In this document: in pieces, positions 16,648 through 48,855 of the stretch
Layout: each line of letters starts with the position of its first letter
Position numbering within the stretch: position 1 is the stretch's first letter
Source: a bacterium
GTDB taxonomy: Bacteria; Patescibacteriota; Dojkabacteria; JAKAPS01; JAJZLI01
DNA: 55,396 nucleotides
Assembly: GCA_021810605.1 (NCBI GenBank)
Contig: JAJZIL010000005.1
Span: 1 to 55,396, forward strand
Direction: 5' to 3'
Notes under the pieces: generated by a model
Databases searched by the model: none
Seen by the model: only the letters and a program-made list of their open reading frames with translations
What the model was told of the DNA's origin: nothing
Position numbers and translations under genes: made by a program

Positions 16648-17705
16648 AATTCTTTTTGTATTATATTAATAATTTTTAAAGTTGCAGGATATCTTTTGTT
16701 AATTATCTTTCCATCAACTTTTATTTTACCACTTAATATGTTATTTGCGGTAATTTTTAATTTTTCTTTATCATTTATTTCTATACAAGCATTGTTCTTT
16801 ATAAAGTATTTTGTATTCTCAGTTTCTTGTCCTGGAATTGTTTTATAAATAATTATAGGGACTCTTTTTAGATTAAGTTCACTTAATGATAATCCTCCTG
16901 CTTTTGTTATTGCTAAATCAGATATACTCATTATCTCTTCTATATTATCAACATACCCTAAAACTTTAGTATTTTTATTAGCATTTTTTTCTAGAGAATT
17001 TCTTAAATTTTTATTTTTTGCTGTTATTATAATAATATTATATTTATTTTCAAATAGTGATATTATGTATTTAGCATCTTGTATTACTCCATCACCTCCA
17101 CCTAAGATCAATATAGTTTTTTTTGTATTATTTATACCTAAATTATTCTTTATTTCTTTAATATTTATATCTTTATAAAATTTTTGTCTGATAGGTATTC
17201 CTGTAATATGAATTTTTTCTTTTTCTACTCCTGATTTATAAAGTCTATCTTTTATCTCTTTATTAGCAACAAAGTATCCATCTATTTTTTTTGTTATCCA
17301 TCCTGAGTGTGCAAAATAATCTGTAATTATAGAATATTTTCTATATGCCTTTATATATGATAATGCTATTGTTGGATTTGGAAAGGTTGATATTAAAATT
17401 GAGTCTTCAATTCCACTACCTATTTTATTTTTTAATCTTTGAGCAATCATCATATCCATAAGTTTAGTTGAATCTTGTCTATCAATTAAACTATAAACTA
17501 ATTTATATAAATATGGAAAATTTGAAATTAAGTAACCATAGATACTTCCTATACTTCTATCGATATTCTCTCCTATTAGAGAAAAATAGTCTATAATAAT
17601 AACATTAAATTGTTCTTTTAATATTTCTTCAAGAGCATCAGATACTGATTTATGTCCATGTCCAATTTTCTCAGTTATTATATATACTTGTCTATTTTTC
17701 TTCAT
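16644..17705 (-). CDS. GT28 MGDG-synthase/UgtP-like glycosyltransferase (second copy)
   Basis: IGHGH, ISTFP, ITDYFAHSGW, GIPIR, TKAGGLSLSE, PGQETEN. Confidence 0.9.
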   Translation of the reverse strand: MKKNRQVYIITEKIGHGHKSVSDALEEILKEQFNVIIIDYFSLIGENIDRSIGSIYGYLISNFPYLYKLVYSLIDRQDSTKLMDMMIAQRLKNKIGSGIEDSILISTFPNPTIALSYIKAYRKYSIITDYFAHSGWITKKIDGYFVANKEIKDRLYKSGVEKEKIHITGIPIRQKFYKDINIKEIKNNLGINNTKKTILILGGGDGVIQDAKYIISLFENKYNIIIITAKNKNLRNSLEKNANKNTKVLGYVDNIEEIMSISDLAITKAGGLSLSELNLKRVPIIIYKTIPGQETENTKYFIKNNACIEINDKEKLKITANNILSGKIKVDGKIINKRYPATLKIINIIQKEL

Positions 17706-18807
17706 AAATTTTTCTGAATTCGTTTATGATTTTTTTAGCAGATTTATTCCAATCATAATTTCTTAGAATTGATAATCCTTTATTAATAAGTTCATTTCTT
17801 AAAGATTCATTTCTTATAATTTTTATCATTGCATCTTCTATTTCTTCTTTTTTATATGGATTTATTAGTATTGCAGCATCCTTAACAACTTCGGGAATGG
17901 ATGTTATATTAGATGTTATAACTGGAGTTTTATGTTTGAAAGACTCTAGTGGTGGAAGTCCAAAACCCTCATATATTGTAGGGTATACAAATATATCTGC
18001 ATTTTTATAAAGTACGGCAAGTTCTTCATCAGAAACTTCAATAATCATCTTTACTCTATCAGATAGATTTTCAGGAATAGCTCTTGTATCCATAGGTACT
18101 TTTTTTGAGTAAATTCTTCCAACTATAACAAGTGAGTGTTTTAGTTCAGTATTTTTTTCAATCATATCTATAAATGCATCTATCAATACTTTATTGTTCT
18201 TTCTCATCTCCATACCTCCTATTCCTAGTATATAAGGTTTATTAATTTCTAGATTATGTAGGATATTACTCTCATTTTTTATACTTTTTAATCTTTGGTC
18301 AAAACTTTCCTTTATAACAAAAATATCTTTTTCCGATACTTTCAAGACTCTTCTTATTTCTTCTTTTGAAAAGTGAGAGACAGTCATGAATTTTGCTGGA
18401 GGGAATAGTTTACTCATATAGACTTTTAATTTATAAGGAGATATTCTACCTTGCAGATATTCTTTAAATACTAGTGGGATAAGATCATGTACAGTAGTAA
18501 TTGTTTTTCCTTTAAAGAAGGGTGGAATTATAAAGTTTTCAGTCGAGAAAAATATATCTATCTTTTCTTTTTTTAGTATGTAAGGTAGATGTATAAATTG
18601 CCAAGTGAGTTTTTTCTTTACAGAAGAAGGGTTTTTAATTTTTTTTATATTATCTTTCTTTATATCACTAAAAGGATCTTCTTCTCCCAGGAGTATTACA
18701 TATGAATTTTCTCTATCCAATAGAATTATCTCTTTGGTAAGATTGTATGCAACTCTTCCGATACCTACTTTTAGATTTGCAAAACGAGCATCAATTGCTA
18801 TTCTCAT
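17692..18807 (-). CDS. Glycosyltransferase family 4
   Basis: MRIAIDAR, TVHDLIP, YEGFGLPPLES. Confidence 0.93.
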   Translation of the reverse strand: MRIAIDARFANLKVGIGRVAYNLTKEIILLDRENSYVILLGEEDPFSDIKKDNIKKIKNPSSVKKKLTWQFIHLPYILKKEKIDIFFSTENFIIPPFFKGKTITTVHDLIPLVFKEYLQGRISPYKLKVYMSKLFPPAKFMTVSHFSKEEIRRVLKVSEKDIFVIKESFDQRLKSIKNESNILHNLEINKPYILGIGGMEMRKNNKVLIDAFIDMIEKNTELKHSLVIVGRIYSKKVPMDTRAIPENLSDRVKMIIEVSDEELAVLYKNADIFVYPTIYEGFGLPPLESFKHKTPVITSNITSIPEVVKDAAILINPYKKEEIEDAMIKIIRNESLRNELINKGLSILRNYDWNKSAKKIINEFRKIYEEK

Positions 18808-18881
18808 AAAATTATATATAAATTACATTAATCTAAAGTATACTATAATTGATCCCATTAGTTAAGGATATATTACTATAT

Positions 18882-20324
18882 TTACTTCTTTTTTAAATTT
18901 AAGTTTTCTTTTATAAATTCTATACTGATGTCTTTTGCTATTATAAGTACTATAAAGTAGACTAAAAGACCAATAATAGATATGAGATATACATTCATTG
19001 ATGAGAGTAGATACATTATTATCATTGATAGAAGACCTGCTAATATAGGAAATTTTAAATATTTAAAAAGTTTGAGTTCAAATCCTCTTTTAAGAATGAT
19101 ATATGAGTAAGATCCTATAAAGAGTTCTGTGAATATAGATGCACTAGCTGCTCCTGATGCACCATAATATGGTATTAGTATGAAATTAAGTATTACATTG
19201 ATCAACATAGAGAAAAACAGTCCCCAGAGTAAATCTTTTTGCCTATCAATTGCTCCAAAAGCATTTCCAATAAGAGCGTTTATAAATATTAATCCAGTAG
19301 CTACAGAGAGTATTTGTAGAGGAAGAATTGAATTATAATATTTATTTCCAAATATAGTCAGTACATAGCCTTTTGAGTTTATTAACATTTCAGCTACAAA
19401 GATTATTAGTAATATACACATGAATTTAATAGCATTATTCAAAAGATCTGTAAACTCAGATATATTTTTTTTGTATAGAAATGACAATGAGGGGAATAAT
19501 ACTCCTATAAGTATTCCTATGACTGAAGTTACAACCCCAGTTGCGGATCTTGCAAGAGCATAGTACCCTACTTGAGTTATAGGCTTTAAACTTCCTAATA
19601 TTACTTGATCAATTGTAAAATATACAGTTACAATAATAGAGCTTAGACCATAGGGCCAGATTTCTTTTAGCATATATATCCAAAACTCTTTATTTATAGA
19701 AAAACTGAATTTTGAGAAATATTTTCTTATTATAAATATGGAGATTATAATTCCAATAAACATTGTAGCAAATAGGACTTCTGAGTAGATAAGAATACTT
19801 CTGTAGTAGTAGAGTGCAATAATTCCAAATATTAGAAGGAGTATTTTTATTATTACTGTATTAAAAGATTCATAAATCATCTTATTATGAGATCTAAATA
19901 CTCCTGTGAAAAGTAGATAAAATCCTGATAATATATTATATAATCCCAAAAAGATCATGATATAGCTCATATTGTCATATTTCTTGACGAAGAATGAAGA
20001 TATAAATATAAGAGTGAGTATAATTAATCCAATTATTATTTTTAGAGAGATTAGATTATCTAGATACTTCTTCACAAGGTTAGTATTTCTAGCAATGTCT
20101 CGAATAAGAACAGTAGACATTCCGAAATCCACAAAGATAGCAAAAATACCTACAATTGAATTTGCATAATTATATATCCCATTATCTCTAGGACCAAGAT
20201 GTCTAGCTAAGATAAGAGATAGAAGTAATGATACAATAATAGATATTCCTTGAGAGAATAGTAGCCATATTGTATTATTTCTTATTTTATTAATCATTGA
20301 TGATTTTAAATGATAATATTTCAA
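18882..20324 (-). CDS. Wzx-type polysaccharide flippase
   Basis: ARHLGP...G.Y, DFGM...IRDIAR, NFILIPYYGASGAA; about 14 TM segments. Confidence 0.9.
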   Translation of the reverse strand: MKYYHLKSSMINKIRNNTIWLLFSQGISIIVSLLLSLILARHLGPRDNGIYNYANSIVGIFAIFVDFGMSTVLIRDIARNTNLVKKYLDNLISLKIIIGLIILTLIFISSFFVKKYDNMSYIMIFLGLYNILSGFYLLFTGVFRSHNKMIYESFNTVIIKILLLIFGIIALYYYRSILIYSEVLFATMFIGIIISIFIIRKYFSKFSFSINKEFWIYMLKEIWPYGLSSIIVTVYFTIDQVILGSLKPITQVGYYALARSATGVVTSVIGILIGVLFPSLSFLYKKNISEFTDLLNNAIKFMCILLIIFVAEMLINSKGYVLTIFGNKYYNSILPLQILSVATGLIFINALIGNAFGAIDRQKDLLWGLFFSMLINVILNFILIPYYGASGAASASIFTELFIGSYSYIILKRGFELKLFKYLKFPILAGLLSMIIMYLLSSMNVYLISIIGLLVYFIVLIIAKDISIEFIKENLNLKKK

Positions 20325-21759
20325 CTAATACTATCACCATCCATATTTGAAGAATATATAGTGTTGAGAAAGTTAGGTATTGAAGGAGTATTCCACATAA
20401 AGCTGCAAATGATGATACTAGTAAAATTTTCTCTAGTGAATTTTCATTATTTTTTACTTTATATGCTTTTATAAAATTCGAAAATATTTTATATATTAAG
20501 AATATAAATAGTACAAATCCTACAATCCCTGTTTCTGCAAGTATTTCTAAATATTCATTATTTACAATAGCCCACCCATATCCTTCTATTTGTCCAAAAT
20601 TTTGAGGTGGGGTTATAAATGGATTTATAGCCATATATGGTCCAAAACCTCCTATTCCTATTCCAAAAATAGGATTAGATGAGAATGCTTGTAGTGCATT
20701 ATTATCTAGATATGTTCTATCTACGGATTGCAAATTTGTTGCTCTTGCAATTATTTTATTAGCAAAATTAGGGAGTTTATTTAATTTATATAGTCCAAAT
20801 ATTCCAATGGATATTACTACTATAGCAATAAGGATTGTATATATGATATTTTTTTTAATTTTATAATTTATTAGAAAAACTAAAAATAGTATAAATATAG
20901 CAAAAGCCTCTCCTATCCATGCTCCTCGTGCATAAGTTAGTAGAAGGTTTATTCCTCCAAGTATTAGTGCTGCTAGTGCAATATATATATCATTCTTTTT
21001 AAGTATATTTTTACTCTTATTAAATATCAAAAGTCCGATAGCCAGAGTTATAGTAAATATTAGATATGTTCCATAATAAAGAGGTTCTACTTCTGTAGCC
21101 TGTATTCTAGGGTAACCTAGAACATTTTTAACATAAGGTGCTCTTAATCCAAGTACTGATCCTGGTAGATTTAGAATATTTCCAAAGTATTGATATAATC
21201 CAAAAATAGAAAGAGCTATTGTTACAGTAAAAAGAATATTAGGTATATATTTTATATATTTTGTATCAAAAAAATTTAAGGGTATTGCATAGTAGATGAT
21301 ATATGTAATAAGTGTAAATAATAATATTTCTATACTTCTTGTCATATTTAAAGCATTAGTCAAAGATAGTATATTTGCAATAATAAGTGCTAGCACAATA
21401 AGAAGAGTTGCATCTTTTTTAATTTTAAAATTCTTATTTATTAGAGATGATATTATAAATGATACTGCACTAATTCCTATTATTATCTGGTCAAATCTTA
21501 TATGTATAGAATGAATATAAAATCCTCCAATATTCTCAAAAGGCATAATTGCAAATGTTATAAGTATTCCTATTGTTGGATTTTTAAGTATTACTATAGT
21601 AGATAGTACTAATATTAATATTATGACAAATATTAACGGTATAAAATTTATAGGTGTTGCGAAAATTTTATCTGATAGAACAAGTATAAATATACTTACT
21701 ATAAGTACTGATATATAGTAAAATTTATTAGGGAGGATATAATTTATAATTTTTTTCAT
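20290..21759 (-). CDS. O-antigen ligase/Wzy_C family membrane protein
   Basis: TYARGAW, NPIFGIGIGGF, NEYLEILAETGIVG. Confidence 0.88.
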   Translation of the reverse strand: MKKIINYILPNKFYYISVLIVSIFILVLSDKIFATPINFIPLIFVIILILVLSTIVILKNPTIGILITFAIMPFENIGGFYIHSIHIRFDQIIIGISAVSFIISSLINKNFKIKKDATLLIVLALIIANILSLTNALNMTRSIEILLFTLITYIIYYAIPLNFFDTKYIKYIPNILFTVTIALSIFGLYQYFGNILNLPGSVLGLRAPYVKNVLGYPRIQATEVEPLYYGTYLIFTITLAIGLLIFNKSKNILKKNDIYIALAALILGGINLLLTYARGAWIGEAFAIFILFLVFLINYKIKKNIIYTILIAIVVISIGIFGLYKLNKLPNFANKIIARATNLQSVDRTYLDNNALQAFSSNPIFGIGIGGFGPYMAINPFITPPQNFGQIEGYGWAIVNNEYLEILAETGIVGFVLFIFLIYKIFSNFIKAYKVKNNENSLEKILLVSSFAALCGILLQYLTFSTLYILQIWMVIVLVEILSFKIIND

Positions 21760-28645: not shown

Positions 28646-29329
28646 ATGGTAGAGAATAGATATAGTAAAGTTCTAGTAGTTGAAGATGAACGAAAGATAT
28701 CTAATTTTATTAAGAGGGGTCTTTTAGATTCAGGATATTCTGTAGATACAGCATTTACAGGAGAGGAGGCATTAGATAAAATACATGATGAGTATAATCT
28801 TATTATTCTTGATTTAATGCTTCCTGATATGGATGGGTTTGATATTTGTGCAAAGATTAGAAGATCAAAAATACAAACTCCAGTTTTAATGTTAACTGCT
28901 AGAAATTCAACAGAAGATAAAATTAAAGGTTTAGATATTGGTGCAGATGATTATCTAACCAAACCTTTTGCTATAGGAGAACTACTTTCTAGAATAAAAG
29001 CTTTGTTAAGGAGATCACCTTCAATTATAGATGGTATTATTAGTGTAGGTGATTTAACTCTTAATACTAAAACATATGAGGTTTTTCGAAATGGAGTTCA
29101 AATAGAGCTTTCTCAGAAAGAATTTTCGATATTGGAGTATTTAATGGTAAATGAAGGTGTAGTATTGACTCGTACAATGATTGAGGATCATGCTTGGGAT
29201 TATGAATTTGAGGGCTTTTCTAATGTTGTAGATGTTTATATAAGGATGTTAAGAAAAAAAATAGATGATGGATATAAAGAAAAAATTATCAAAACAGTTC
29301 GGGGTGTGGGTTACAAAGTTAAAGGATGA
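28646..29329 (+). CDS. OmpR-family response regulator
   Basis: VVEDE, DLMLP, LTAR, GADDYLTKPF, winged helix NVVDVYI..LRKK, TVRGVGY. Confidence 0.96.
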   Translation: MVENRYSKVLVVEDERKISNFIKRGLLDSGYSVDTAFTGEEALDKIHDEYNLIILDLMLPDMDGFDICAKIRRSKIQTPVLMLTARNSTEDKIKGLDIGADDYLTKPFAIGELLSRIKALLRRSPSIIDGIISVGDLTLNTKTYEVFRNGVQIELSQKEFSILEYLMVNEGVVLTRTMIEDHAWDYEFEGFSNVVDVYIRMLRKKIDDGYKEKIIKTVRGVGYKVKG

Positions 29330-30722
29330 TCCTATATTTTCAACTTTAAAGTTTAAGTTTTTATTTTGGAACATCATTCTTTCTACTGTATCTATTGCTG
29401 TTATTCTTTTAGTATTTTTTGAAACTACTCAATATATACTCTACTCTCAATTCAATTCTAACTTACTTTATACTGCAAACGAAGTCTCTTCTATTGTAGG
29501 TCATTCGAGTTCATCATTTAGTGCTAATAAGGTATCTCAGTTCCATAATAAAAAATTTATTGGTTATTTTATTGTTGTACTTAATTCTAATGGTCATGTT
29601 GTAGCAGAATCAAATAATATAAAGCTTAATAGTAGTTTTATTACAAGTGTCTTTAATGCAATTCAGGATAAGACTAATTCTTCAGTATTTACACAAAAGA
29701 TAGGTAATCAAGATCTATCTTTAATATCAATTCCTACATTTAATAGTTTTGGAGATCTTTCTGGAGTTGTTATTGTAGGTAATTCTATTAATATAATTCA
29801 TGATACTCTACATACACTATTGATAGTGATGTTTTTTATGGCACTTATATTTATTTTTATAGTAGTGCTATTTACTTTTTATTTTTCTGATAAGATTACT
29901 GACCCTTTAGCAGATATAACATCTCAGATAGTATCTATAACAGGATTTAACTTAAATCAAAGGATTAAGACTAAGAACTATGATAAAGAATTTAATACTA
30001 TGTCTGAAGAATTTAATAAGCTTCTAAATAGATTAGAGAATACTTTTGATAGAGAAAAGAGTTTTATAAATGATGTAGCTCATGAAATAAAAACGCCATT
30101 AGCAATAATTAATGGTGAGACTGAGCTTTATTTAAAGAGTAAAAAAGATGATATAGTATCATATAAAAAGATGTTGGATGCTAATTTGTATCAAGCAAGA
30201 AAAATTGAGAAAGTTTTAAATGATGTATTATCTTTAGCAAGGGTAGAATATAATACTTCATCTTATATAACTGAAAAGATTGATATACAGTCTCTACTCT
30301 CAGAGATTGCAATGGATATGAAGATTATTGCACAAACAAAAGGTATTGAATGTAATTATATTATAAATGGTAAAGATTTTTATGTTTTTTCGAATAAGGA
30401 AAATTTATCAAAGGCAATTTTGAATATTTTAACTAATTCTATTAAATATACAAAGAAAGGTAGTGTTATTCTTTCTTTATCAAAAAAGGCGAAGAATATA
30501 TTTATTAGTATAGAAGATACGGGTATTGGTATTAAAGAGGAAGATTTACCTAAAATCTTTAATAGATTTTATAGATCACCAAATGTTAGAAATATTGAGG
30601 GTACTGGGTTAGGATTATCTATTTCAAAGTCAATAATTGAGGGGTATAAAGGAACTATACTTGTGGAAAGTAAGATCTCTTTGGGTACAAAATTTACTAT
30701 AATTTTACCTGAATTTAGATAA
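29265..30722 (+). CDS. Sensor histidine kinase (2 TM, HAMP, HisKA, HATPase); start uncertain
   Basis: AHEIKTPL, NILTNSIKY, DTGIGI, FNRFYR, GTGLGLSI. Confidence 0.95.
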   Translation: MMDIKKKLSKQFGVWVTKLKDDPIFSTLKFKFLFWNIILSTVSIAVILLVFFETTQYILYSQFNSNLLYTANEVSSIVGHSSSSFSANKVSQFHNKKFIGYFIVVLNSNGHVVAESNNIKLNSSFITSVFNAIQDKTNSSVFTQKIGNQDLSLISIPTFNSFGDLSGVVIVGNSINIIHDTLHTLLIVMFFMALIFIFIVVLFTFYFSDKITDPLADITSQIVSITGFNLNQRIKTKNYDKEFNTMSEEFNKLLNRLENTFDREKSFINDVAHEIKTPLAIINGETELYLKSKKDDIVSYKKMLDANLYQARKIEKVLNDVLSLARVEYNTSSYITEKIDIQSLLSEIAMDMKIIAQTKGIECNYIINGKDFYVFSNKENLSKAILNILTNSIKYTKKGSVILSLSKKAKNIFISIEDTGIGIKEEDLPKIFNRFYRSPNVRNIEGTGLGLSISKSIIEGYKGTILVESKISLGTKFTIILPEFR

Positions 30723-40539: not shown

Positions 40540-41067
40540 TTATACTATTATTCTCTTATATTTAAATTTTTCAAGTTTATTTTCTATATCTGAATATTTT
40601 CCTCCAGCCAGTATTCCTCCTGCTAAAAAATTTTCTTCTGTTACATCTGATAGGCAGAAATCTGGAATTTTAAAATCTAAGAATTCTTTTTCATTTCTAA
40701 ATTCAAAATCTACAAGAATTAACCCTAATAAATCATCTAGAAATAGATCTATTTCAGATTTATATTTTTTATATAAATATTCATATCTTATTTTTCTTAT
40801 TCTCTTTCCTTTTATTTGGGATAGCTCTAGATATTCATTTTTCGTAATAGAAATAGTATTTTCTATTTGTGAATATATTTTATTTTCATCAATGGGGTAT
40901 TTTTTTGTTATTTCATATTTGTCTCCATTTTTTCTTATTCTTAAATGAGGGTGTTTTTCATTAGATGGAATATATATATCTAAAATTTCTTTATAAGGTA
41001 ACAATTTAATATCTACAGGTATATATTTTAAAAGATACGTTTTTTCTATCTCTATTGCTTTCATCAA
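40540..41067 (-). CDS. CYTH-domain (triphosphate tunnel metalloenzyme) protein
   Basis: EIEKTYL (ExExK), LRIRK, KIRY, EIDLF...GL..VDFEF, DVT. Confidence 0.85.
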   Translation of the reverse strand: MMKAIEIEKTYLLKYIPVDIKLLPYKEILDIYIPSNEKHPHLRIRKNGDKYEITKKYPIDENKIYSQIENTISITKNEYLELSQIKGKRIRKIRYEYLYKKYKSEIDLFLDDLLGLILVDFEFRNEKEFLDFKIPDFCLSDVTEENFLAGGILAGGKYSDIENKLEKFKYKRIIV

Positions 41068-41076
41068 TTTGGGTAA

Positions 41077-41292
41077 TTATTTTATTTTATAGATTATATA
41101 TTCTATTATACCAGATTCAGTGTTTATAGTTATTCTATCATTTTCTTTTTTTCCTAATAACATAGATCCTATAGGAGATGTGTTAGTAATTTTTCCAGAT
41201 AAAGGATCTGGATTTTCGCTTACAATAGTAAATATGCAATCAATTTTTCCTTTCTTTGTGTATACTATAGAACCTATTCTTACTATATTCAT
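41077..41292 (-). CDS. Stand-alone GreA/GreB C-terminal domain
   Basis: VRIGSIV, FTIV, GKITNTSPIGSMLLGKK.ND, T.SG...Y.I. Confidence 0.85.
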   Translation of the reverse strand: MNIVRIGSIVYTKKGKIDCIFTIVSENPDPLSGKITNTSPIGSMLLGKKENDRITINTESGIIEYIIYKIK

Positions 41293-41372: not shown

Positions 41373-43640
41373 TTATTTAAGTTTTAATTTTTTGAAAACA
41401 TCTTGTGTTTGAAATTGAGTATTATCATATTGCTCTACATCTTTTGCTACTGGTATTTTAAATGAAAAAATGGATCCTTTTCCTACTATACTCTCTAACC
41501 ATATTTTCCCATTCATCCTTTCTATTAGACCTTTTACTACATATAGTCCTAATCCTGTTCCACCAGGTCTTACTAATAAATGTTTTGTATCTTTTGGATC
41601 ATTTGGATTTCCTATATAATTATTTAATCTGTGAAATTTTTGAAATAAATTAGGTATTTCTTCTTCAGGTATTCCTACACCATCATCTTTTATATGGACA
41701 GTTACAAATTCTTTCCCATCTTCTGTGCTTATCTCTACTTCTCCTCTTTCAGAATATTTTATAGCATTTGAAATTAAATTACCTAAAATTTCCTCTACTT
41801 TTGTCCTATCTCCATAGACCATATGAATATTATTTTTCTTATAGATTATTTTTATGCCTTTACTCATTGCTTCTTTTTTAAATCCGTCAACTTGACTTTC
41901 TATCATGGATACTAAATCTAAATTTTCTGGAAGTATAGGTACATTGGATTTACCCATTCTTGAAGCTTCAAGTAAAGTATTTATTATTCTTATCTCACTT
42001 TCAATACTTTCTATACTTCTCTGTATATATCTATCCAACTTTTCTATATATTCATTATTTCTTTTATTTTTAGGGAGAGTTTTAATATATGATTTAATTG
42101 TAGATTGTGCCATATATACATTACCTTTAACTATACTAGCAGGAGTTCTTAGTTCATGTGATGATATTGAAATTAAATCATCTTTGAGTTGATCTAACCC
42201 TTTTAATTCTTCATTTGCTCTTTTCAATTTGTTATTATTCTCTTCTAATTCTTTTGTAGCTGTGGCTATTTTATCTTGTAGATTTAAACTGAAATCTTTA
42301 GTTTTTTTGTAAAGATTAATATTATTTATAAATAAACTTAATTGTAGACTGATTTTATTTAATATATCTATATCATTTCTATAATATATATCATTGGAAT
42401 ATTTTCTACCTAATAGTATTGTTGCAATTGTCATATTTTCATAAATTATTGGAATAATAACTTCTATTCCAGAATTTATTAAAGTTCTATATTTACTATC
42501 TTCTTTTTTATCAATATAATCAATTATAATAATGTTATTAGGGGTATTAATTATTTGTAAATTTTTTTCTATTATAGCTTTATCTATATTATAGCAATAA
42601 ATATTATAATCATAGGATGTATTTATTATTAATACTATTTTATTTGTTCCAAATATATTTAAAATAGAATTTTTTAATAATTCAAAAAAATTATCTATAT
42701 CTAAATATTTATTTATGGATTGAAATAAATTATCAACTTCTTTATTAGTATCACTAATTTTTCTAAATATATATCTATCTAATAATATAGATATATATTT
42801 TTTTAATATAGGAAAAATTATTAAAATTATTAAAGAAAAAATGATTTCAAATAAGTTCTCATCGTTAGTAATTTTTAATTGTAATATGTTTATTGATACT
42901 ATTAATGTAATAATTAGTATTATATAAGATAATAGATATATTAAAATAGCTCTTGTAGCGATAGCAAGATTAAAAAGTTTTCTTTGTGTAATAGAATATG
43001 AAATTATTAAAAATATTAATATAGTATATAAATTCTGAGTTATAATAGAAAATTGATCTATTTTGAAAAATATAGGTAATAATATATTAAATATTATTAC
43101 AAAAATAAAAAATAATGAAAATGATAGATAAATATATTGTATTTGTAGTTTTTGGTAACTATTAGATTTTTTATATCCAATATAAAATTTATAAAGTAAA
43201 TATATTACAGTTAATATATTTATTATTACGAAAATATATATACCAAATCCAAGCTGAGGTGTTATATTTTTTGATATAGTTACTGATTTAAAAGTTAAAT
43301 TTGAAAAGATCAATAATTCCATAAATAGAGATAATATAGTTAAATATATTAATTTTTTTATATATTTTTCATTAATCTTTTTTATAGAAAAAGAATCTAT
43401 GAATACTAGTAAAGACAATATTAGTATATATCCTAAAAATGCAGTAGATCTAATATAAAATAAAGTTAAGTTTTCACTAGGTGTATTAAATGATAAATAA
43501 TCAGCTATATTAACTAAAGAGAATAATATTATGATAGAAAAAAAGGAAAATGATTTGAAATTAACTTTTTGATTGAATATAACAATTACTCCTAAGAGGA
43601 ATAGTATAAAAATAGAAACAAACGTTATTATTTCATTCAT
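41373..43640 (-). CDS. Sensor histidine kinase with N-terminal 7TM-type domain and GAF-like domain
   Basis: About 9 hydrophobic segments, LLGRK.S.D.Y...D..IL GAF end, coiled coil, SHELRTP, NLISNAIKY, DDGVGI, GGTGLGL. Confidence 0.92.
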   Translation of the reverse strand: MNEIITFVSIFILFLLGVIVIFNQKVNFKSFSFFSIIILFSLVNIADYLSFNTPSENLTLFYIRSTAFLGYILILSLLVFIDSFSIKKINEKYIKKLIYLTILSLFMELLIFSNLTFKSVTISKNITPQLGFGIYIFVIINILTVIYLLYKFYIGYKKSNSYQKLQIQYIYLSFSLFFIFVIIFNILLPIFFKIDQFSIITQNLYTILIFLIISYSITQRKLFNLAIATRAILIYLLSYIILIITLIVSINILQLKITNDENLFEIIFSLIILIIFPILKKYISILLDRYIFRKISDTNKEVDNLFQSINKYLDIDNFFELLKNSILNIFGTNKIVLIINTSYDYNIYCYNIDKAIIEKNLQIINTPNNIIIIDYIDKKEDSKYRTLINSGIEVIIPIIYENMTIATILLGRKYSNDIYYRNDIDILNKISLQLSLFINNINLYKKTKDFSLNLQDKIATATKELEENNNKLKRANEELKGLDQLKDDLISISSHELRTPASIVKGNVYMAQSTIKSYIKTLPKNKRNNEYIEKLDRYIQRSIESIESEIRIINTLLEASRMGKSNVPILPENLDLVSMIESQVDGFKKEAMSKGIKIIYKKNNIHMVYGDRTKVEEILGNLISNAIKYSERGEVEISTEDGKEFVTVHIKDDGVGIPEEEIPNLFQKFHRLNNYIGNPNDPKDTKHLLVRPGGTGLGLYVVKGLIERMNGKIWLESIVGKGSIFSFKIPVAKDVEQYDNTQFQTQDVFKKLKLK

Positions 43641-43685
43641 TATTCTAAATATACACTACTTAAATTTATTTTTAAATAGTACTTT

Positions 43686-45125
43686 CTATACCTGTTTTAT
43701 TTTATTTTTTGTTTTGAATGAATTATCTGGACCAAACTCTTCAAGTATAATTTGAGGAACAGCTTTTTCTTTTATTGAACTAATTAATTTATTATATTCT
43801 CCATTTATTTTTCTTAAATTTCGTACAAAAGTTTCTTTTATGAATTTCTCATCATTTTTTGAAATTTGAGAATATGATAAATTAGGGGATAATTCTAAAT
43901 GTAATTTAAATATAGGATTTCCATTAGGGTCTAATTCTTGGTATGCTCTAAATTTACCTGAAATCAGTGATAATAATTCTTCTGATTGTATTGAACTTTG
44001 AATATGAAAACTTGGTATTTTAACTGAGTAAAATGATAAAACAACATCTTTTTTAGAAGATATAAATATAAAAGGATTTTTGTCTTTAGGCTTAAAATTA
44101 GGTATTTTTTCTTTAATATATTCCTCTAATTTATTTGATGTAATTATTCCTCCATTATCATTTAATGTATATCTGATTAAAGGAGTATTAGATGTAAAAT
44201 CTGTTATGACAATTAGTCCATTTTCTGATACTTGGAAAAAATGTTTATTAGGATTATATTGATAAATAGATGGTATATATTTTGTATTAAAAATTTTTTC
44301 AATTTCATTCTCATTTAATCTTTGTTCCATTATTAATTTTAATTCTGGAGTATAGTCATTATCAATTGCCATAATTCCTACTTCTGAAGCTGCATATAAT
44401 GATTTTAATCTGCCTTTTCCAATTATTGACTCTACCCTTTTTCTAATTTCATTTGATAAAATATCTCCTCCTACATAGGCATAGATATTAATATTCTTAA
44501 TGAGATTTTTTTCTTTTGCTATATCAATTATATCTTTTGTTGAGCTTGTATATCCTATTAGTACTAAAGTATTAATTTTTTCTTTTTTTACATAATGTTC
44601 TAATATCTTCATATTTTCATCAATATCTAGTCCAGGAGTTATAAATTGAAAGGAATCTAATTCTTGAGATAATATTCTAAATACTCTAGACATTAACCCT
44701 CCTGCACCCCAAACTCCCATACCAGCTGTTACTATTCCTAATATAGTGTCAATATTATCAATATTATCAATATCTTTTTCTATCCTAGATTTAAAATCTG
44801 CAGCAATAGACATATCTAAGTTCTCATCTTGTGCCCAATAATGAGGTTTACCACTAGATCCTGAAGAAGAGAGTATTTGTGTTATTTTTGTTGGATCTAT
44901 AGATCTATCTTTCAAAGAAAATAACTCTATATAATTTTCTTGATTTGTATACGGGAGTCTATTAAAATCATCAATATTTTTTATATCAGATATATTTATT
45001 TTTTGATCAGATAAGAATTTTATATATGCAGGAATTTTATGTGCATATAATAGAAAATTACTCAATACTTTCTGTTGACTTATTTCTATTATATCTACAG
45101 TTTGTTTACTATCTACTTTATACAT
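43686..45125 (-). CDS. Phenylacetate-CoA ligase-like adenylate-forming enzyme
   Basis: IPAY..FL, LPYT, SSSGSSGKP (A3 loop), YAASE (A5), PLIRYTLND. Confidence 0.85.
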   Translation of the reverse strand: MYKVDSKQTVDIIEISQQKVLSNFLLYAHKIPAYIKFLSDQKINISDIKNIDDFNRLPYTNQENYIELFSLKDRSIDPTKITQILSSSGSSGKPHYWAQDENLDMSIAADFKSRIEKDIDNIDNIDTILGIVTAGMGVWGAGGLMSRVFRILSQELDSFQFITPGLDIDENMKILEHYVKKEKINTLVLIGYTSSTKDIIDIAKEKNLIKNINIYAYVGGDILSNEIRKRVESIIGKGRLKSLYAASEVGIMAIDNDYTPELKLIMEQRLNENEIEKIFNTKYIPSIYQYNPNKHFFQVSENGLIVITDFTSNTPLIRYTLNDNGGIITSNKLEEYIKEKIPNFKPKDKNPFIFISSKKDVVLSFYSVKIPSFHIQSSIQSEELLSLISGKFRAYQELDPNGNPIFKLHLELSPNLSYSQISKNDEKFIKETFVRNLRKINGEYNKLISSIKEKAVPQIILEEFGPDNSFKTKNKIKQV

Positions 45126-45145
45126 ATTTTATATACATAATTTAT

Positions 45146-46219
45146 TTAAATTCTAATTCTTGATGAATAATTATATCCCAATGCATGTTGTATAATTACA
45201 TTTGTTACTCCAGCTCCTGCATGAGAGGATGCAGTTACTAATTGACTCATCCAGAATAGTTCTCCTTTTGACATAGCTTTAAAATGTCTAGACATTCTTT
45301 CAATTTCTTCAAAATTAACACCTAAAATTGCAGATATTATTTCAACTAAATCTTTAGGATCTAAACTATTCATTTCTTCAATTTTTTTTAATTGATATGT
45401 AGATAATCTACCCAAGAATATCTTATCTTTTGGAGTTTCAATATCAATTAGTGCTCCAAGTTCTAAATCAGTACCCATAACTACAGTAAATCCCATCTCT
45501 TTAGATAATTTTCTTAATTCTAATTTTAAAGGTAGTGTATCAAATGCATCTACTACATAATCTAAATCTTCTGTAAATAATTTTAAATCATTCTTATTGT
45601 TTAATCCATTAGGATAATATTTTATCTTAAGATATGGATTAGATTCTAAAGCTAATCTTCCTGCTAAATAAGTTTTATTTAATCCTAATTCTGTAATTCC
45701 GGAACGAGGTAATCTATTACTGTTTGATAAAGATAATGTATCATAATCAGCTAATCTATATTCATTACCTGTTCCAGATTTTATTAAATTTAATAAACTT
45801 GATTGTCCTACACTAAGTCCTATAATTCCAATTTTCAAATTATACAATGTTTTTTGTTCTAAATTAGTTATTTGTTCTCTATTTCTCGATGTATTAACAA
45901 GTCTTAGATACTCTTCAATAGGAACAAAAGATAAATTTCCATTCCAAGGAAAATATATGAGATTAAATTTAATTTTATTACTATTTTTAAATTCATTTAA
46001 CTGTTTAGAATATTTGGGATTTTTAGGGTGGATATGCGGATATAGTGAATTAAATATTTCTTCTAAAATATCTATTCTTTTATCATATATTGATAAAATT
46101 TTGTTATTAGAAACGAAATTTTCTAAATTTACTTGATCATTAGGATCTAAAAATACAACCTCTGGACTAACCATATCTTTTTTTGCAGTTTTTAAAATCA
46201 AAGAATCTATAATTTTCAT
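45146..46219 (-). CDS. ThiF-family adenylyltransferase of the Rv1355c/MoeY type, without nitroreductase domain
   Basis: YFPW, TSRN...IT..EQ, GIIGLSVG, LADYDTLSLSNSNR, VDAFD, W.SQL. Confidence 0.85.
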   Translation of the reverse strand: MKIIDSLILKTAKKDMVSPEVVFLDPNDQVNLENFVSNNKILSIYDKRIDILEEIFNSLYPHIHPKNPKYSKQLNEFKNSNKIKFNLIYFPWNGNLSFVPIEEYLRLVNTSRNREQITNLEQKTLYNLKIGIIGLSVGQSSLLNLIKSGTGNEYRLADYDTLSLSNSNRLPRSGITELGLNKTYLAGRLALESNPYLKIKYYPNGLNNKNDLKLFTEDLDYVVDAFDTLPLKLELRKLSKEMGFTVVMGTDLELGALIDIETPKDKIFLGRLSTYQLKKIEEMNSLDPKDLVEIISAILGVNFEEIERMSRHFKAMSKGELFWMSQLVTASSHAGAGVTNVIIQHALGYNYSSRIRI

Positions 46220-46248
46220 GTTGCCCTATAGTGTATGTATGTGAAAAT

Positions 46249-46277
46249 ATTCTCTCATAATTATATTTTTTTGTCAA
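46249..46277 (-). promoter_or_regulatory. Promoter of the ThiF-ligase-kinase operon
   Basis: TTGACA-17 nt-GAGAAT with preceding TG on the minus strand. Confidence 0.5.
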
Positions 46278-46295
46278 TAAAATTATGCGTCATTA

Positions 46296-46324
46296 TTGAA
46301 AAACACTATAAGTTTTGATATAAT
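46296..46324 (+). promoter_or_regulatory. Strong sigma70-type promoter reading toward the collapsed ATPase and XRE pair
   Basis: TTGAAA-17 nt-TATAAT with extended -10 TG. Confidence 0.65.
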
Positions 46325-46399
46325 GTGTCCGTATTTATAATTAAATAGTGTAGATACTTTTAATTACAGTTCTTAATTATTTGAGTATTTTGTGTATCT

Positions 46400-47182
46400 T
46401 TGTTATTTAAAAAAGATTATATATTTGAAGATATTAATAGTTCATCAATTCTTAGAATTGCTGTTCCTAAGAACAATGATAAGACTCCTTTATCCGGAGA
46501 ACAACTTTTTACTTCCATTCATGGTATATTAGATGATTCTAAAATTTCTAAGAATCATTTTAGTTTAGAAATAGTATCCTCTTTTGATGGTATTTCTTTT
46601 TATGTAGTTATTCCAAAGGAATATAGAAATTTCATAAAAGGTCAAATTTATGCACAATACCCTACTGTTGAGATTAATGAAATTGACGATTATACAAATC
46701 AATTTCATAATTATAAATACTTCTTTTCATCAGAGATATCTTTTGGAAAAGAGTATATATTCCCAATAAGGACATTTCCTAACTTTGATGTTGATCCTCT
46801 TTCATCTATAACTATTGCAATGAGTTCTAAATTAGATGAATTCCAATTATTTGGCACAAATGCTTTTTCGAAAATTTTATCAGAATCAAGGAAATATAGA
46901 TTGAATTTAATACTAGCTCATCAGTATATTTCTCAATTAGAAGAAGATATTCAAAATGCTATATTTATAGGAGAAGATTTGATATCATTAGAGAAACATC
47001 ATTTTTATATAAAGTTAATGATTGATGGTATGATTTCTAAACCTTTTATTGGAATATCAATGAATATTCAATATGAGAGGAATAATAATAAAGAAAAAGT
47101 TTTGAATGTATCAAAAGAACATTATTCTAGGAGAAAAGAAATTTTTGAAGATAAAATAAATCGTTGGTCAAATAATAACTAA
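46400..47182 (+). pseudogene. Internally deleted TraD/VirD4/HerA-like ATPase of the type common in CPR genomes, still in frame
   Basis: N-terminal domain (HFSLEI, QIYAQYP, FPIRTF, DPLSSIT) joined directly to Walker B region LDEFQ...ILSESRKYRLNLILAHQY; no Walker A. Confidence 0.7.
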
Positions 47183-47183
47183 T

Positions 47184-47990
47184 ATGAAAAATAACATAGG
47201 AGAATATATAAAAGCAGAGAGATTGAGATATAAGAATGGTAATAATATTGGAATAAGTCAGATTGATTTGTCACTGAAAATAGGTTGGGAGAACCCATCT
47301 ACACTATCACGAATAGAGCAAGGTAAAATAATTCCTACAAAAGAAACAGTAATAAATATATTTGAAGCATTAGAAATTCCTCAAGAAGTAGTAGTTTGTA
47401 TTTTTATAAAAAGTAATTATTTATATACAGGAGAAATTCTTACAGAGAAATATATAGAAAAAGTCACAAATTCTTTAATATCTAAAATTGACTTATTAAA
47501 AGTCCCGACTTTTTTAATAAGTTATCCAAATGACTCTGTATTACATATTAATAATATAGGTAAAAAAGTATTTTTTGGAGAAGAGATTAATTCTGAATTA
47601 GAAAATATTCTCTTATCTGGAGAGAGTTTTGTGAACATAATTTTTAATCCTAATTATATAATGAAAGATTTGATATTAAATTGGGAAGAATTTGTAAAAA
47701 TTATAATATCTAATCAACATATTATATATAATGATACAGATAAAGAGAGAGAAGATATTAGGGTATTAAAAAAATTTCCTAGATTTAATGAATTTTGGGA
47801 AGATTCTCAAAATAAAACAGTACATGATTTTCAATCTTTTAATATTCCTTTTAAATATAACTCACCTATTCTTGGTGAAATAAAATTTTTAATACAAGAG
47901 ACTCCAGTATTAGAAGATAATAGATTTTTTATTATTCAATTTATTCCTGCAATTAGAAAAGATTTCATTAAATTAGAAGGTTTAAAATAA
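47184..47990 (+). CDS. XRE-family HTH regulator with MmyB-like PAS ligand-binding domain
   Basis: SQIDLS..IGWENPSTLSRIEQG; NWEEF, FPRFNEFW, SPILGEIKF. Confidence 0.8.
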   Translation: MKNNIGEYIKAERLRYKNGNNIGISQIDLSLKIGWENPSTLSRIEQGKIIPTKETVINIFEALEIPQEVVVCIFIKSNYLYTGEILTEKYIEKVTNSLISKIDLLKVPTFLISYPNDSVLHINNIGKKVFFGEEINSELENILLSGESFVNIIFNPNYIMKDLILNWEEFVKIIISNQHIIYNDTDKEREDIRVLKKFPRFNEFWEDSQNKTVHDFQSFNIPFKYNSPILGEIKFLIQETPVLEDNRFFIIQFIPAIRKDFIKLEGLK

Positions 47991-47994
47991 CTCT

Positions 47995-48855
47995 ATGTTG
48001 AATAATATTTATACAAATGAAGATCTAAAAAAAGTAAAGATTGGAAAATTAATCAAAGATTTCAGGTTAAGAAAAATTGGAGATAATGGAAGGCATTGGT
48101 CTCAGTTAGATTTAGCAAATGCAATAGGATGGGAGAATCCTTCGACTTTATCTAGAATAGAAAATAGTCAAATAAAGCCATACCGAGATACAATTTTAAA
48201 AATATCAAAATGTTTAGATTTAAATAATGAAGATACGAATACACTTTTAAAGAAAGCTGGATACTCAGAGTATGGAGAAAGGATAGTTCCTTCTTATACT
48301 GAGAGATTAATAGACCGTATAAAAAATGAGCTAGAATTATATGATTTTCCGGTAATGGTTAATACTATAAATAATCTTGAAGAGATAATATATATAAATT
48401 CTGCCAATGCAATATTTTTTACTGAATACGAAAATCATAAATCCCTTATAAAAGATTTAAATGGAATAAGTTTTTTTGATATTATTTTTACAGATGATTT
48501 TGGGTTTAAAAAAAATATACTAAATTATGAAGAGTTCATTTATTCTTTTACTTCGAATATATATATGATGTATGCAAATTTTACTAATGAGGAAGAATCC
48601 TTAAATATAAATAAAAATTTAGATAAGTATAAAGATTTTAAAGATGTATGGAAGTCTATCTTTAATAAAGATCATAATAGTTTGAAAATTAAAGGAATTC
48701 CGTTAGAGTATAATATATCCAAATTAAATAAAAAAATAAGATTTTTGATATTAACATTTCCAATATATATAGATACTAGATTTTTATCTGAGCATTTTGT
48801 TCCTACGGATAAAAAATTATATTCAGAAATTTTAAATGAGTTAGCTTTATTTTAA
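47995..48855 (+). CDS. XRE-family HTH regulator with MmyB-like PAS ligand-binding domain (paralogue)
   Basis: SQLDLA..IGWENPSTLSRIEN; LLKKAGY, FPV, NYEEF, FKDVW, HFVP.D. Confidence 0.8.
   Translation: MLNNIYTNEDLKKVKIGKLIKDFRLRKIGDNGRHWSQLDLANAIGWENPSTLSRIENSQIKPYRDTILKISKCLDLNNEDTNTLLKKAGYSEYGERIVPSYTERLIDRIKNELELYDFPVMVNTINNLEEIIYINSANAIFFTEYENHKSLIKDLNGISFFDIIFTDDFGFKKNILNYEEFIYSFTSNIYMMYANFTNEEESLNINKNLDKYKDFKDVWKSIFNKDHNSLKIKGIPLEYNISKLNKKIRFLILTFPIYIDTRFLSEHFVPTDKKLYSEILNELALF

Follow-up and report, generated by a model that had tools for sequence, protein, structure and literature searches.

A ThiF-like, PaaK-fold and sensor kinase gene trio in Patescibacteria as a candidate module for making and sensing a small amino-acid-derived molecule

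The 55,396-nucleotide stretch analyzed here (the window) is contig JAJZIL010000005.1 of a Dojkabacteria genome (Patescibacteriota; assembly GCA_021810605.1). It is contig 15 of that genome, called G000 below (745,818 bases, 96% complete, ∼25% GC). A minus-strand operon in the window encodes a ThiF-like enzyme, a PaaK-fold enzyme and a sensor histidine kinase. We lean modestly towards reading these genes as one module that would both make and sense a small amino-acid-derived molecule. The trio itself is a real, recurrent module, and the signalling reading comes from comparative evidence throughout. The ultra-small Patescibacteria, which live attached to other microbes, are generally credited with next to no secondary metabolism or signalling. 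The compared set comprises 41 genomes, i.e., G000 and 40 relatives, among which G001 and G002 belong to the same genus as the window and G004, G006 and G008 are related at the family level. The genes of the operon, in order of transcription, are as follows.

45146..46219, minus strand: candidate ThiF/E1-like ATP-dependent cyclase, 357 aa, first gene of the operon
43686..45125, minus strand: PaaK-fold adenylate-forming enzyme, 479 aa
41373..43640, minus strand: orphan sensor histidine kinase, 755 aa
42275..43640, minus strand: stretch of the kinase gene that encodes the sensor (residues 1 to ∼455), which joins the enzyme genes in a hypervariable block

The three open reading frames (ORFs) are separated by gaps of 20 and 45 nt, just as the original prediction for this locus described them. 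The ThiF-like protein matches the Pfam ThiF model (8.2e-16), and its top NCBIfam match is the Rv1355c family (NF005901; E = 9.9e-46), which bears out the proposed Rv1355c/MoeY-type identity for the N-terminal half of that family only. Residues 25 to 348 align with profile positions 20 to 323 of 722, N-terminal extension included; since the match is confined to these positions, the protein corresponds to the N-terminal half alone. As it lacks the oxidase half, it scores only 156 bits against a family cut-off of 476, and the next family reaches 63 bits. The ThiF/E1 Rossmann domain retains its ATP-binding and catalytic residues: G134, G138, D158, D160, N166, K182, D227 and D251 are kept in a 13-sequence alignment of the window protein and 12 relatives. 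Going by these matches, the 357-aa enzyme is a stand-alone homolog of the N-terminal (cyclase) half of Rv1355c/TrzS/OxzB. No nitroreductase-fold flavin oxidase is fused or adjacent to it, and the neighboring gene encodes the PaaK-fold ligase rather than an N-acyl amino acid synthase of the OxzA/TyzA/TrzA type. It is the only ThiF-family gene in the G000 genome.

The PaaK-like protein has no match in Pfam and a weak N-terminal match in NCBIfam (6e-9), and its earlier assignment as a PaaK-like adenylating enzyme is upheld by profile and structure comparisons. A profile of nine homologs finds PaaK structures in the PDB (4r1l, 1.3e-23; 2y4o, 2.5e-19). Foldseek comparison of an AF2 model (pLDDT 82.9) gives PaaK1 at 1.4e-18, values of 1e-18 to 1e-17 for PaaK1/2 and BT_0428, and values of 1e-15 to 1e-13 for the PaaK-family ligases NatL2, AjiA1 and ClxA. 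The ANL-type adenylation motifs SSGSSGKP (P-loop), GGEG, QYNP, RYxxxDxG and GRSD are conserved in the nine-homolog alignment. The fold and motifs are thus those of the PaaK family, which includes phenylacetate-CoA ligase and the benzoxazole-pathway enzymes NatL2, AjiA1 and ClxA. However, the window protein scores 34.9 bits on the PaaK equivalog model TIGR02155, far under the cut-off of 646.3, carries ∼40 to 70 extra residues, and has the ThiF-like gene and the kinase for neighbors, with no paa genes nearby. We propose that this 479-aa protein is an ATP-dependent, acid-activating and amide-forming ligase. Ligases of the NatL2, AjiA1 and ClxA type presumably work without coenzyme A (CoA). Neither CoaE nor a carrier-protein domain was found in the G000 genome, which fits a CoA-independent ligase, as a weak argument.

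The third protein had been called a 7TM-GAF histidine kinase, and most of this description stands. Residues 486 to 732 form a HisKA plus HATPase_c core, with HATPase_c matched at 7.9e-27, HisKA at 1.5e-5 (25.4 bits, just under the cut-off of 26.9), and the H-box present. Hydropathy gives about eight hydrophobic segments in residues 1 to 280, followed by a GAF-like region at ∼300 to 460. The window protein itself, however, misses both Pfam models, with no HisKA_7TM (PF16927) or GAF match at E ≤ 0.01. Among 25 homologous kinases, 17 match HisKA_7TM (best 5.2e-17) and 4 match a Pfam GAF model. A profile of 15 kinase mid-regions, with the window's as its first row, finds the solved GAF domain 3o5y (1.3e-8) and, more weakly, the DevS and phosphodiesterase (PDE) GAF domains, which puts a GAF domain after the membrane part and ahead of the kinase core. 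In G006 and G008, the kinase encoded after the ligase shows homology to the whole length of the window kinase. Five receiver domains are encoded in G000, three of them paired with other kinases and two orphans. The window also contains a second complete two-component pair at 28670 to 30713 on the plus strand, with the receiver in a 228-aa frame and the kinase in a 485-aa frame. Directly downstream of the operon's kinase lie two minus-strand ORFs, one of 71 aa (41077 to 41292) that is a GreA/GreB C-terminal domain only (1.3e-11) and one of 175 aa (40540 to 41067) with no family match; a homolog of the small ORF is also found near the G002 module.

The original prediction set gene-neighborhood recurrence as its own test, and the combination of ThiF-like, PaaK-like and 7TM kinase genes does recur, both in family relatives and more widely in Patescibacteria. 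The ligase is present in 11 of the 41 genomes, including the window's, and the ThiF-like protein in five. Of the 10 ligase-bearing relatives, 8 have a homologous kinase next to the ligase or at a distance of one to two genes. The full trio is found in two family relatives: G006 has ThiF-like, ligase and kinase genes in the same order and overlapping, while G008 has the end of a ThiF gene, an aminotransferase gene on the other strand, and then ligase and kinase. In G004, a ThiF gene, an aminotransferase gene, a DAO-type oxidase gene and the start of the ligase gene run up to the contig end. Among more distant relatives, the ligase directly precedes a homologous kinase in G038, G011 and G016, a methyltransferase gene stands between the two in G031 and G036, and in G027 the kinase adjoins a degraded ligase gene. 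A receiver-SHOCT gene precedes the ligase in G038, and in G010 the ligase has a nitroreductase-fold gene and no kinase beside it. The module is absent from G001, of the same genus. Nor does it keep to one place in the chromosome, as it sits at differing sites in G000, G002 and G006: the sequences flanking the G006 operon have their G000 counterparts in neighboring genes on contig 19, and those flanking the G002 module map to contig 10.

To look beyond these genomes, we compared a five-sequence ligase profile with 185,579 species genomes, found 126 relatives among 192 candidate stretches, and took the best 80. Partners were counted as homologs lying <5 kb from the ligase, with taxonomic groups assigned by record titles and several loci cut at contig ends. 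The 33 loci with Patescibacteria titles include a kinase sensor part in 25, ThiF in 18, a receiver in 14, a nitroreductase-fold gene in 13, a methyltransferase in 9 and an aminotransferase in 5. The corresponding numbers for 42 loci from other bacteria are 3, 5, 4, 28, 0 and 0, with the ligase alone at 12 loci and a nitroreductase-fold gene as its sole partner at 24; four of these loci (L047, L055, L057 and L068) hold a full Patescibacteria-like set. All six partners are missing from the five archaeal loci, where the ligase is alone in four and one locus matches the catalytic part of the kinase only. In loci L071 to L107 (Acidobacteriota, Eremiobacterota, Bacteroidota and others), the ligase gene has an Acg/Rv3131-type nitroreductase-fold gene as its pair, and the two often overlap. 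Other searches returned less: a word-index homolog search gave six proteins, and a metagenome scan for close relatives gave none with a single-protein query and one partial match with a six-sequence alignment. Two DNA sequencing runs of one study contain identical contigs.

What do the partner genes at ligase loci tell us? The ThiF halves match the N-half of the Rv1355c profile (4.5e-105 and 7.6e-89) and the nitroreductase-fold halves match its C-half (1.5e-59 and 1e-48), and one fused 747-aa protein scores 474.2 bits against the Rv1355c cut-off of 476. The cassette is therefore the oxazolone-synthetase set in which a PaaK-fold ligase takes the position of the acyltransferase and a kinase is added. 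The form lacking the oxidase is common to G006, G008, G004 and 6 of the 18 ThiF-containing Patescibacteria loci (within the 5-kb range), and the window module is a minimal, oxidase-less form of the cassette. The Acg-type family was likewise not found in G002, G004, G006 or G008, and the control genome G010 has it. The aminotransferase genes seen in G008 and G004 and the DAO gene of G004 were not found in G000.

The kinase and the enzymes vary together, which suggests a receptor-ligand relation between them, as originally proposed. The predicted synthases are co-transcribed with a multi-pass kinase and co-vary with it across three pairs of genomes and one tree (the approximately unbiased [AU] test is not significant, P = 0.08). 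A hypervariable block was seen in all three same-genus pairs examined, and it is contiguous on the DNA, comprising the gene or genes just upstream of the kinase and the 5′ part of the kinase gene. The G000 and G002 kinases are 27% identical over residues 1 to 300, 28% over 301 to 470, and 79% over 471 to 755; by 50-column blocks, identity is 18 to 33% up to ∼450 and 59 to 90% after this step. Their enzymes differ, with ligase and ThiF in G000 and an acyltransferase-like protein and a 28%-identical ThiF in G002. In contrast, the kinase of G006, which is from another genus and has the same enzymes as G000, is 43, 40 and 61% identical to the window's over the same three intervals. The G022 and G031 kinases share 20 to 25% identity over the first ∼200 aligned columns and 53 to 94% over the rest, with a downstream neighbor at 84%; upstream, G031 has a ligase and a methyltransferase, and G022 has a GT1-type glycosyltransferase and an alpha/beta hydrolase. 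In G006 and G008, which have the same gene content, the ligase (49%) and the first 250 kinase residues (43 to 56%) are divergent, against high identity in ThiF (85% across 273 residues) and in the remainder of the kinase (mostly 84 to 98%).

Trees of the two kinase parts point the same way. They were built from 46 kinases, after 3 of 49 were dropped for lack of an H-box motif. In the sensor-part tree, 20 kinases of groups PT, PTN, PTNM and T, encoded beside a ThiF gene, form one clade across classes (Shimodaira-Hasegawa-like approximate likelihood ratio test [SH-aLRT], 97), and the window kinase groups with G006 and G008 (99), not with G002. None of the three kinases associated with acyltransferase-like and ThiF genes belongs to that clade: those of L121 and L122 pair up as weakly joined sisters, and that of G002 branches elsewhere. 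The catalytic-part tree instead makes the window kinase sister to that of G002 (99). Neighbor classes change 14 times on the sensor tree and 19 times on the catalytic tree, compared to a mean of 30.4 when shuffled, and none of 200 shuffles was as low for either. This pattern is like that of agrB-agrD-agrC in staphylococci and comQ-comX-comP in Bacillus, pherotype loci in which the signal-gene block and the 5′ sensor part of the kinase gene are hypervariable and the kinase core is conserved. The window differs from these in having small-molecule adenylating enzymes, no peptide precursor, and no adjacent response regulator.

The original prediction also held that a ligase replaces the usual acyltransferase, and sister modules with the same kinase family support this, as they hold a FeeM/LuxI-like N-acyltransferase together with a ThiF-like gene. 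Kinases of the same architecture occur in 25 of the 41 genomes, and we examined 20 further kinase loci. G013 and G036 have the order receiver, ThiF-like, a protein X, kinase, and in G020 and G009 a ThiF-like gene adjoins the kinase. Protein X of G013 matches the FeeM (N-acyl amino acid synthase) model at 1.5e-5 and 25.2 bits, just under the cut-off of 27, and protein X of G036 is its homolog. In G002, a gene for a 257-aa acyltransferase-like protein lies just upstream of the kinase gene, with the ThiF-like gene divergently transcribed. Its Pfam matches are below threshold (Autoind_synth, 0.041; Acetyltransf_5, 0.16). In the ESM Atlas, the nearest named clusters are FeeM, Acetyltransf_5 and Autoind_synth (feature score 0.93, with 10 of the 10 best matches in one clan), and structural TM scores are 0.60 to 0.66 to acyl-homoserine lactone (AHL)-synthase and FeeM clusters. 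We take these models as a lead, not proof, that it may be a FeeM/LuxI-like acyltransferase.

Two side observations concern these kinase loci. Loci L125 to L139 hold kinase paralogs of class-level relatives; of these 12 additional 7TM kinases, 10 are preceded by a co-directional gene at a spacing of −17 to +26 nt. On contig 10 of G000 (16480 to 20490; L141), an azole-peptide-like operon comprises a YcaO gene (Pfam 9.4e-37), a nitroreductase-family gene (2.9e-11), which is the only one of that family in G000, and an S9 prolyl oligopeptidase gene. This cluster lies in the interval where G002 has its XRE, kinase, acyltransferase and ThiF module, so the interval is a variable island.

Among characterized systems, the closest is that of OxzAB (Pseudoalteromonas rubra), TyzACB and TrzAS (Rv1356c/Rv1355c; Mycobacterium and Rhodococcus), rather than the N-acyl-cyclolysine (ACL) system that had been suggested for this locus. 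TrzS (Rv1355c) is reported to join an ATP-dependent cyclase and a flavin oxidase in one protein, which converts N-acyl tryptophan to an oxazolone, and together with the acyltransferase TrzA it converts tryptophan to N-acyl tryptazolone (PMC12856293). OxzAB and TyzACB are described as making the equivalent conversion of tyrosine or phenylalanine (PMC12856293; PMC12596934; 10.1101/2020.06.11.147165). The documented reaction is the ATP-dependent ring closure of an N-acyl amino acid (PMC12856293; 10.1101/2020.06.11.147165). The window's ThiF-like enzyme belongs to the family of the cyclase half, and related loci add a split or fused nitroreductase-fold oxidase. A methyltransferase is an occasional partner at related loci, and stieleriacine clusters are likewise described as adding a methyltransferase (PMC12479983). 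In contrast to the oxazolone systems, the window has a PaaK-fold ligase in place of the acyl-CoA-dependent N-acyltransferase, no oxidase, and a co-transcribed 7TM-GAF kinase. The available portions of the accounts of oxazolone systems mention no kinase or ligase partner (PMC12856293; PMC12596934; 10.1101/2020.06.11.147165; PMC12479983). Likewise, we found no published description of the cassette in literature on Patescibacteria oxazolones and on quorum-sensing kinases of the candidate phyla radiation (CPR), within titles and the starts of abstracts. A 2025 review names OxzB as the sole ThiF-like enzyme with a known small-molecule substrate (PMC12596934), and the oxazolone preprint speculates that these molecules may be stress signals (10.1101/2020.06.11.147165). 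ACL signalling in Bacteroidota is similar in that two enzymes beside a regulator make an N-acylated, cyclized amino-acid signal, but it uses LuxR-family repressors, at least as summarized in part by citing papers; the window has a histidine kinase and XRE regulators, and none of 10 proteins scanned around the locus has a LuxR-type domain.

From these comparisons, a pathway can be sketched. The PaaK-fold enzyme would adenylate a carboxylic acid and join it to an amine, most likely an amino acid, to give an N-acyl amino acid, probably without CoA. The ThiF-like enzyme would then adenylate the free carboxylate of the N-acyl amino acid and close an azlactone/oxazolone-type or other intramolecular ring, a cyclization that is the reaction of the TrzS/OxzB/TyzB cyclase half. 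Because G000 is without a TrzS-type oxidase, the ring would stay saturated. The co-transcribed 7TM-GAF kinase may bind the lipophilic product in or at the membrane and phosphorylate a receiver-only regulator encoded elsewhere. If the product is released from the cell and diffusible, it could serve in quorum or host sensing. A broader proposal, which we regard as possible and hold tentatively, is that Patescibacteria carry exchangeable "dialect" cassettes, in which the enzymes and the 7TM-GAF sensor half recombine as a unit onto a conserved kinase core. The window would then be an oxidase-less, ligase-type dialect, with an N-acyl amino-acid azlactone or related ring acting as a private cell-cell or symbiont-host signal that is read by the kinase and by two MmyB-like regulators encoded on the opposite strand.

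These regulators belong to the following features, which diverge from the operon.

46220..46399, no strand: divergent intergenic region separating the enzyme-kinase operon from the plus-strand genes, 180 nt
46400..47182, plus strand: decayed TraG/VirD4-type coupling-protein gene, 260 aa
47184..47990, plus strand: XRE1, an XRE helix-turn-helix (HTH) regulator with an MmyB/MltR-like PAS ligand-binding domain, 268 aa
47995..48855, plus strand: XRE2, a second XRE-HTH regulator of the XRE1 family, 286 aa

The operon had been described as back-to-back with a transcript carrying the twin XRE regulators. The two blocks are indeed divergent, but the 260-aa ORF, which that description missed, separates XRE1 from the divergent promoter region and ends 1 nt short of XRE1; it is the first of four nearly touching plus-strand ORFs, followed by XRE1, XRE2 and a phosphoglucomutase gene. 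It matches Pfam TraG-D_C at 0.0013, below the cut-off, and its last 116 residues (145 to 260) are 66% identical to the C-terminus of a G005 protein of 497+ aa, with a 27-residue internal gap and the ATPase core absent. It is a decayed TraG/VirD4-type gene and probably lies outside the system. Within the 180-nt gap, the region's two best promoter-like sites stand back to back, at 46296 to 46324 on the plus strand (11/12, with TG) and at 46277 to 46249 on the minus strand (10/12, with TG). These are weak evidence, as this AT-rich region has 74 promoter-like sites in total, no excess over shuffled sequences (84.7 ± 9.2).

Both regulators do have the MmyB-like domains claimed for them, XRE1 by model and profile and XRE2 by alignment only. 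HTH_3 is their only Pfam match (3.3e-8 for XRE1 and 5.2e-6 for XRE2), with no match to Pfam ligand-domain models at E ≤ 0.01. The AF2 model of XRE1 (pLDDT 88.8) finds 3pxp_A with Foldseek at E = 1.1e-12 over 277 columns, followed by PAS/LOV domains at E > 3e-3, and a sequence profile finds 3pxp at 6.7e-7, spanning 20 to 242. The entry is Caur_2278, a PAS-plus-HTH protein of Chloroflexus aurantiacus (PDB 3pxp). XRE2 is a paralog of XRE1 (34% identical) and aligns at full length with XRE1 and 13 homologs. The 3pxp protein, which we take to bind a fatty-acid-like ligand, resembles the window regulators over the whole length, with an XRE HTH and a PAS-like domain; it differs in that identity is 17% and in that the window regulators are paired. 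Such pairs of full-length homologs lie <4 kb from a 7TM kinase gene in 6 of the 41 genomes (G000, G002, G019, G028, G034 and G036), co-directional or divergent with it, and the intervening genes vary: DDAH-like, HisRS-like and one without a family match at E ≤ 0.001 in one example, UbiA, polyprenyl synthase and a 665-aa protein without an assigned family in others. Weaker XRE matches are also present elsewhere in G019 and G034. The XREs accompany the kinase in G000 and G002 despite their differing genomic place. The two regulators may be intracellular receptors or may regulate the operon, and their link to the enzyme-kinase module is weaker than that among the trio. We also looked for a mosaic like that of the kinase and did not find one: the window XREs are 44 to 69% identical to homologs in the HTH and 23 to 43% in the ligand domain. 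Separately, L134 (7305 to 14456; G034) and L124 (7058 to 15015; G036) contain operons of two MmyB-like XREs, further genes and a 7TM kinase. The further genes are HisRS-like (443 to 447 aa, no anticodon-domain match), DDAH-like, and one without a family match at E ≤ 0.001, for which the L124 copy has GNAT matches of 0.011 to 0.08 only. These operons may be another enzyme-plus-sensor module.

Several observations weigh against a dedicated make-and-sense module, or against parts of it. Unrelated genes, for an alpha/beta hydrolase or a glycosyltransferase, also precede kinases of this family. Of 10 upstream genes that were scanned (nine immediate neighbors and the second upstream gene in L130), 6 have no Pfam family, so the coupling is not peculiar to this chemistry. 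Rapid evolution is usual in membrane sensor parts. A sensor tree constrained to unite G000 and G002 has a delta log-likelihood of 38 and is not significantly rejected in the AU test quoted above (the test on the catalytic tree, with G000, G006 and G008 held together, is uninformative at P = 0.49), and G002 lies on a long branch of the sensor tree, which weakens the co-variation. Neighbor class is partly tied to taxonomy in the tallies and trees, and the kin compared are not independent. The low GC of the sensor part (0.14 to 0.15 at 42400 to 43400, versus 0.27 to 0.29 in the catalytic part) may come in part from membrane-segment and hydrophobic codons. No response-regulator gene is adjacent to the kinase, tblastn of eight module-linked receivers against the five receivers of G000 gave no clear partner, and a search of sequencing runs found no RNA run containing the locus. 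On the chemical side, no homolog of the oxidase half was found in the G000 genome at E ≤ 1 with an oxidase query; the product thus cannot be the desaturated oxazolone of known systems, and a saturated azlactone is reactive and short-lived. Carrier-protein domains are also lacking in relatives, including those with acyltransferase-type modules (0 of 5 genomes), so we dropped the argument that a lack of CoA or acyl carrier protein explains the ligase, as there is no contrast. The four-part combination that the original prediction expected elsewhere was found in none of the 40 relatives and at none of the 80 ligase loci, where no XRE homolog lies within 5 kb of the ligase. G006 and G008 carry the enzyme-kinase operon without XREs, and G003, G005 and G007 each have one XRE homolog and no such kinase. 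In G005, the homolog lies between the coupling-protein gene and an 80%-identical phosphoglucomutase gene, with no kinase or enzymes, an arrangement like that of the window, so the XRE pair may simply be resident at this locus.

How else might the operon be explained? It could be a regulated biosynthetic cluster without autoinduction, making a lipid-like or antimicrobial N-acyl amino acid derivative while the kinase responds to something external, for instance host contact or membrane stress. Two-component genes are commonly found beside biosynthetic genes, and the 24 loci of other phyla with only the ligase and nitroreductase-fold pair, and no kinase, fit this account. Published work also places clusters for oxazolones and N-acyl dehydrotyrosines among lipid or natural-product pathways without an assigned role (PMC12856293; PMC12479983). 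We nonetheless consider it fairly unlikely, as it leaves unexplained that the sensor part diverges or is replaced along with the upstream enzymes as the core is conserved, and that sensor clades track the neighboring enzyme set across classes. Co-variation would fit a shared ligand whoever makes it, and so it also suits an account in which an imported carboxylic acid or N-acyl amino acid from the host is sensed and converted, i.e., eavesdropping or scavenging without a signal of its own. The small genome, with neither CoaE nor a carrier-protein domain found, fits such a dependence on outside lipids. However, the partner enzymes are homologous to the biosynthetic TrzS, no transporter is conserved in the module, and catabolism seldom spends ATP on two adenylations; we regard this form of salvage as improbable.

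The remaining two accounts seem to us more doubtful still. In one, to which we give very little credence, ThiF would adenylate a C-terminus as in RiPP (peptides made on ribosomes and modified after translation) or ubiquitin-like pathways, the PaaK-fold enzyme would acylate, and the kinase would sense the modified peptide. Peptide pheromone systems do use multi-pass kinases, and most characterized ThiF-like enzymes are reported to act on proteins, peptides or tRNA (PMC12596934). However, the short intergenic gaps leave no room for a peptide gene, no conserved small ORF is present, and the gene upstream of ThiF in G006 is an unrelated cyclophilin gene. The module also has no YcaO, E2, protease or ubiquitin-like gene (the genome's YcaO cluster is on another contig), and the best family by a wide margin, at 156 versus 63 bits, is that of the small-molecule cyclase Rv1355c. 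In the other account, which we find scarcely credible, the window copy is an inactive, decaying remnant that has lost its oxidase and regulator. It does lack an oxidase and an adjacent receiver, a decayed coupling-protein gene from a mobile element lies next door, and the module is absent from G001. Against this, none of the three frames is broken or shortened, the catalytic residues are conserved, and the oxidase-less form recurs in relatives often enough, as counted above, to be a stable variant.

We thus return to a module that would make and sense an amino-acid-derived molecule as the reading to which we lean. If it is correct, a conserved Patescibacteria module makes a small molecule and its own receptor, with sensor and enzyme parts swapped between close species. 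It would suggest a signal role for the oxazolone and N-acyl amino acid family, as well as a second, ATP-dependent route to this chemistry in which a ligase stands in for the acyltransferase. It would also offer an entry into how Patescibacteria talk to each other or to their hosts.

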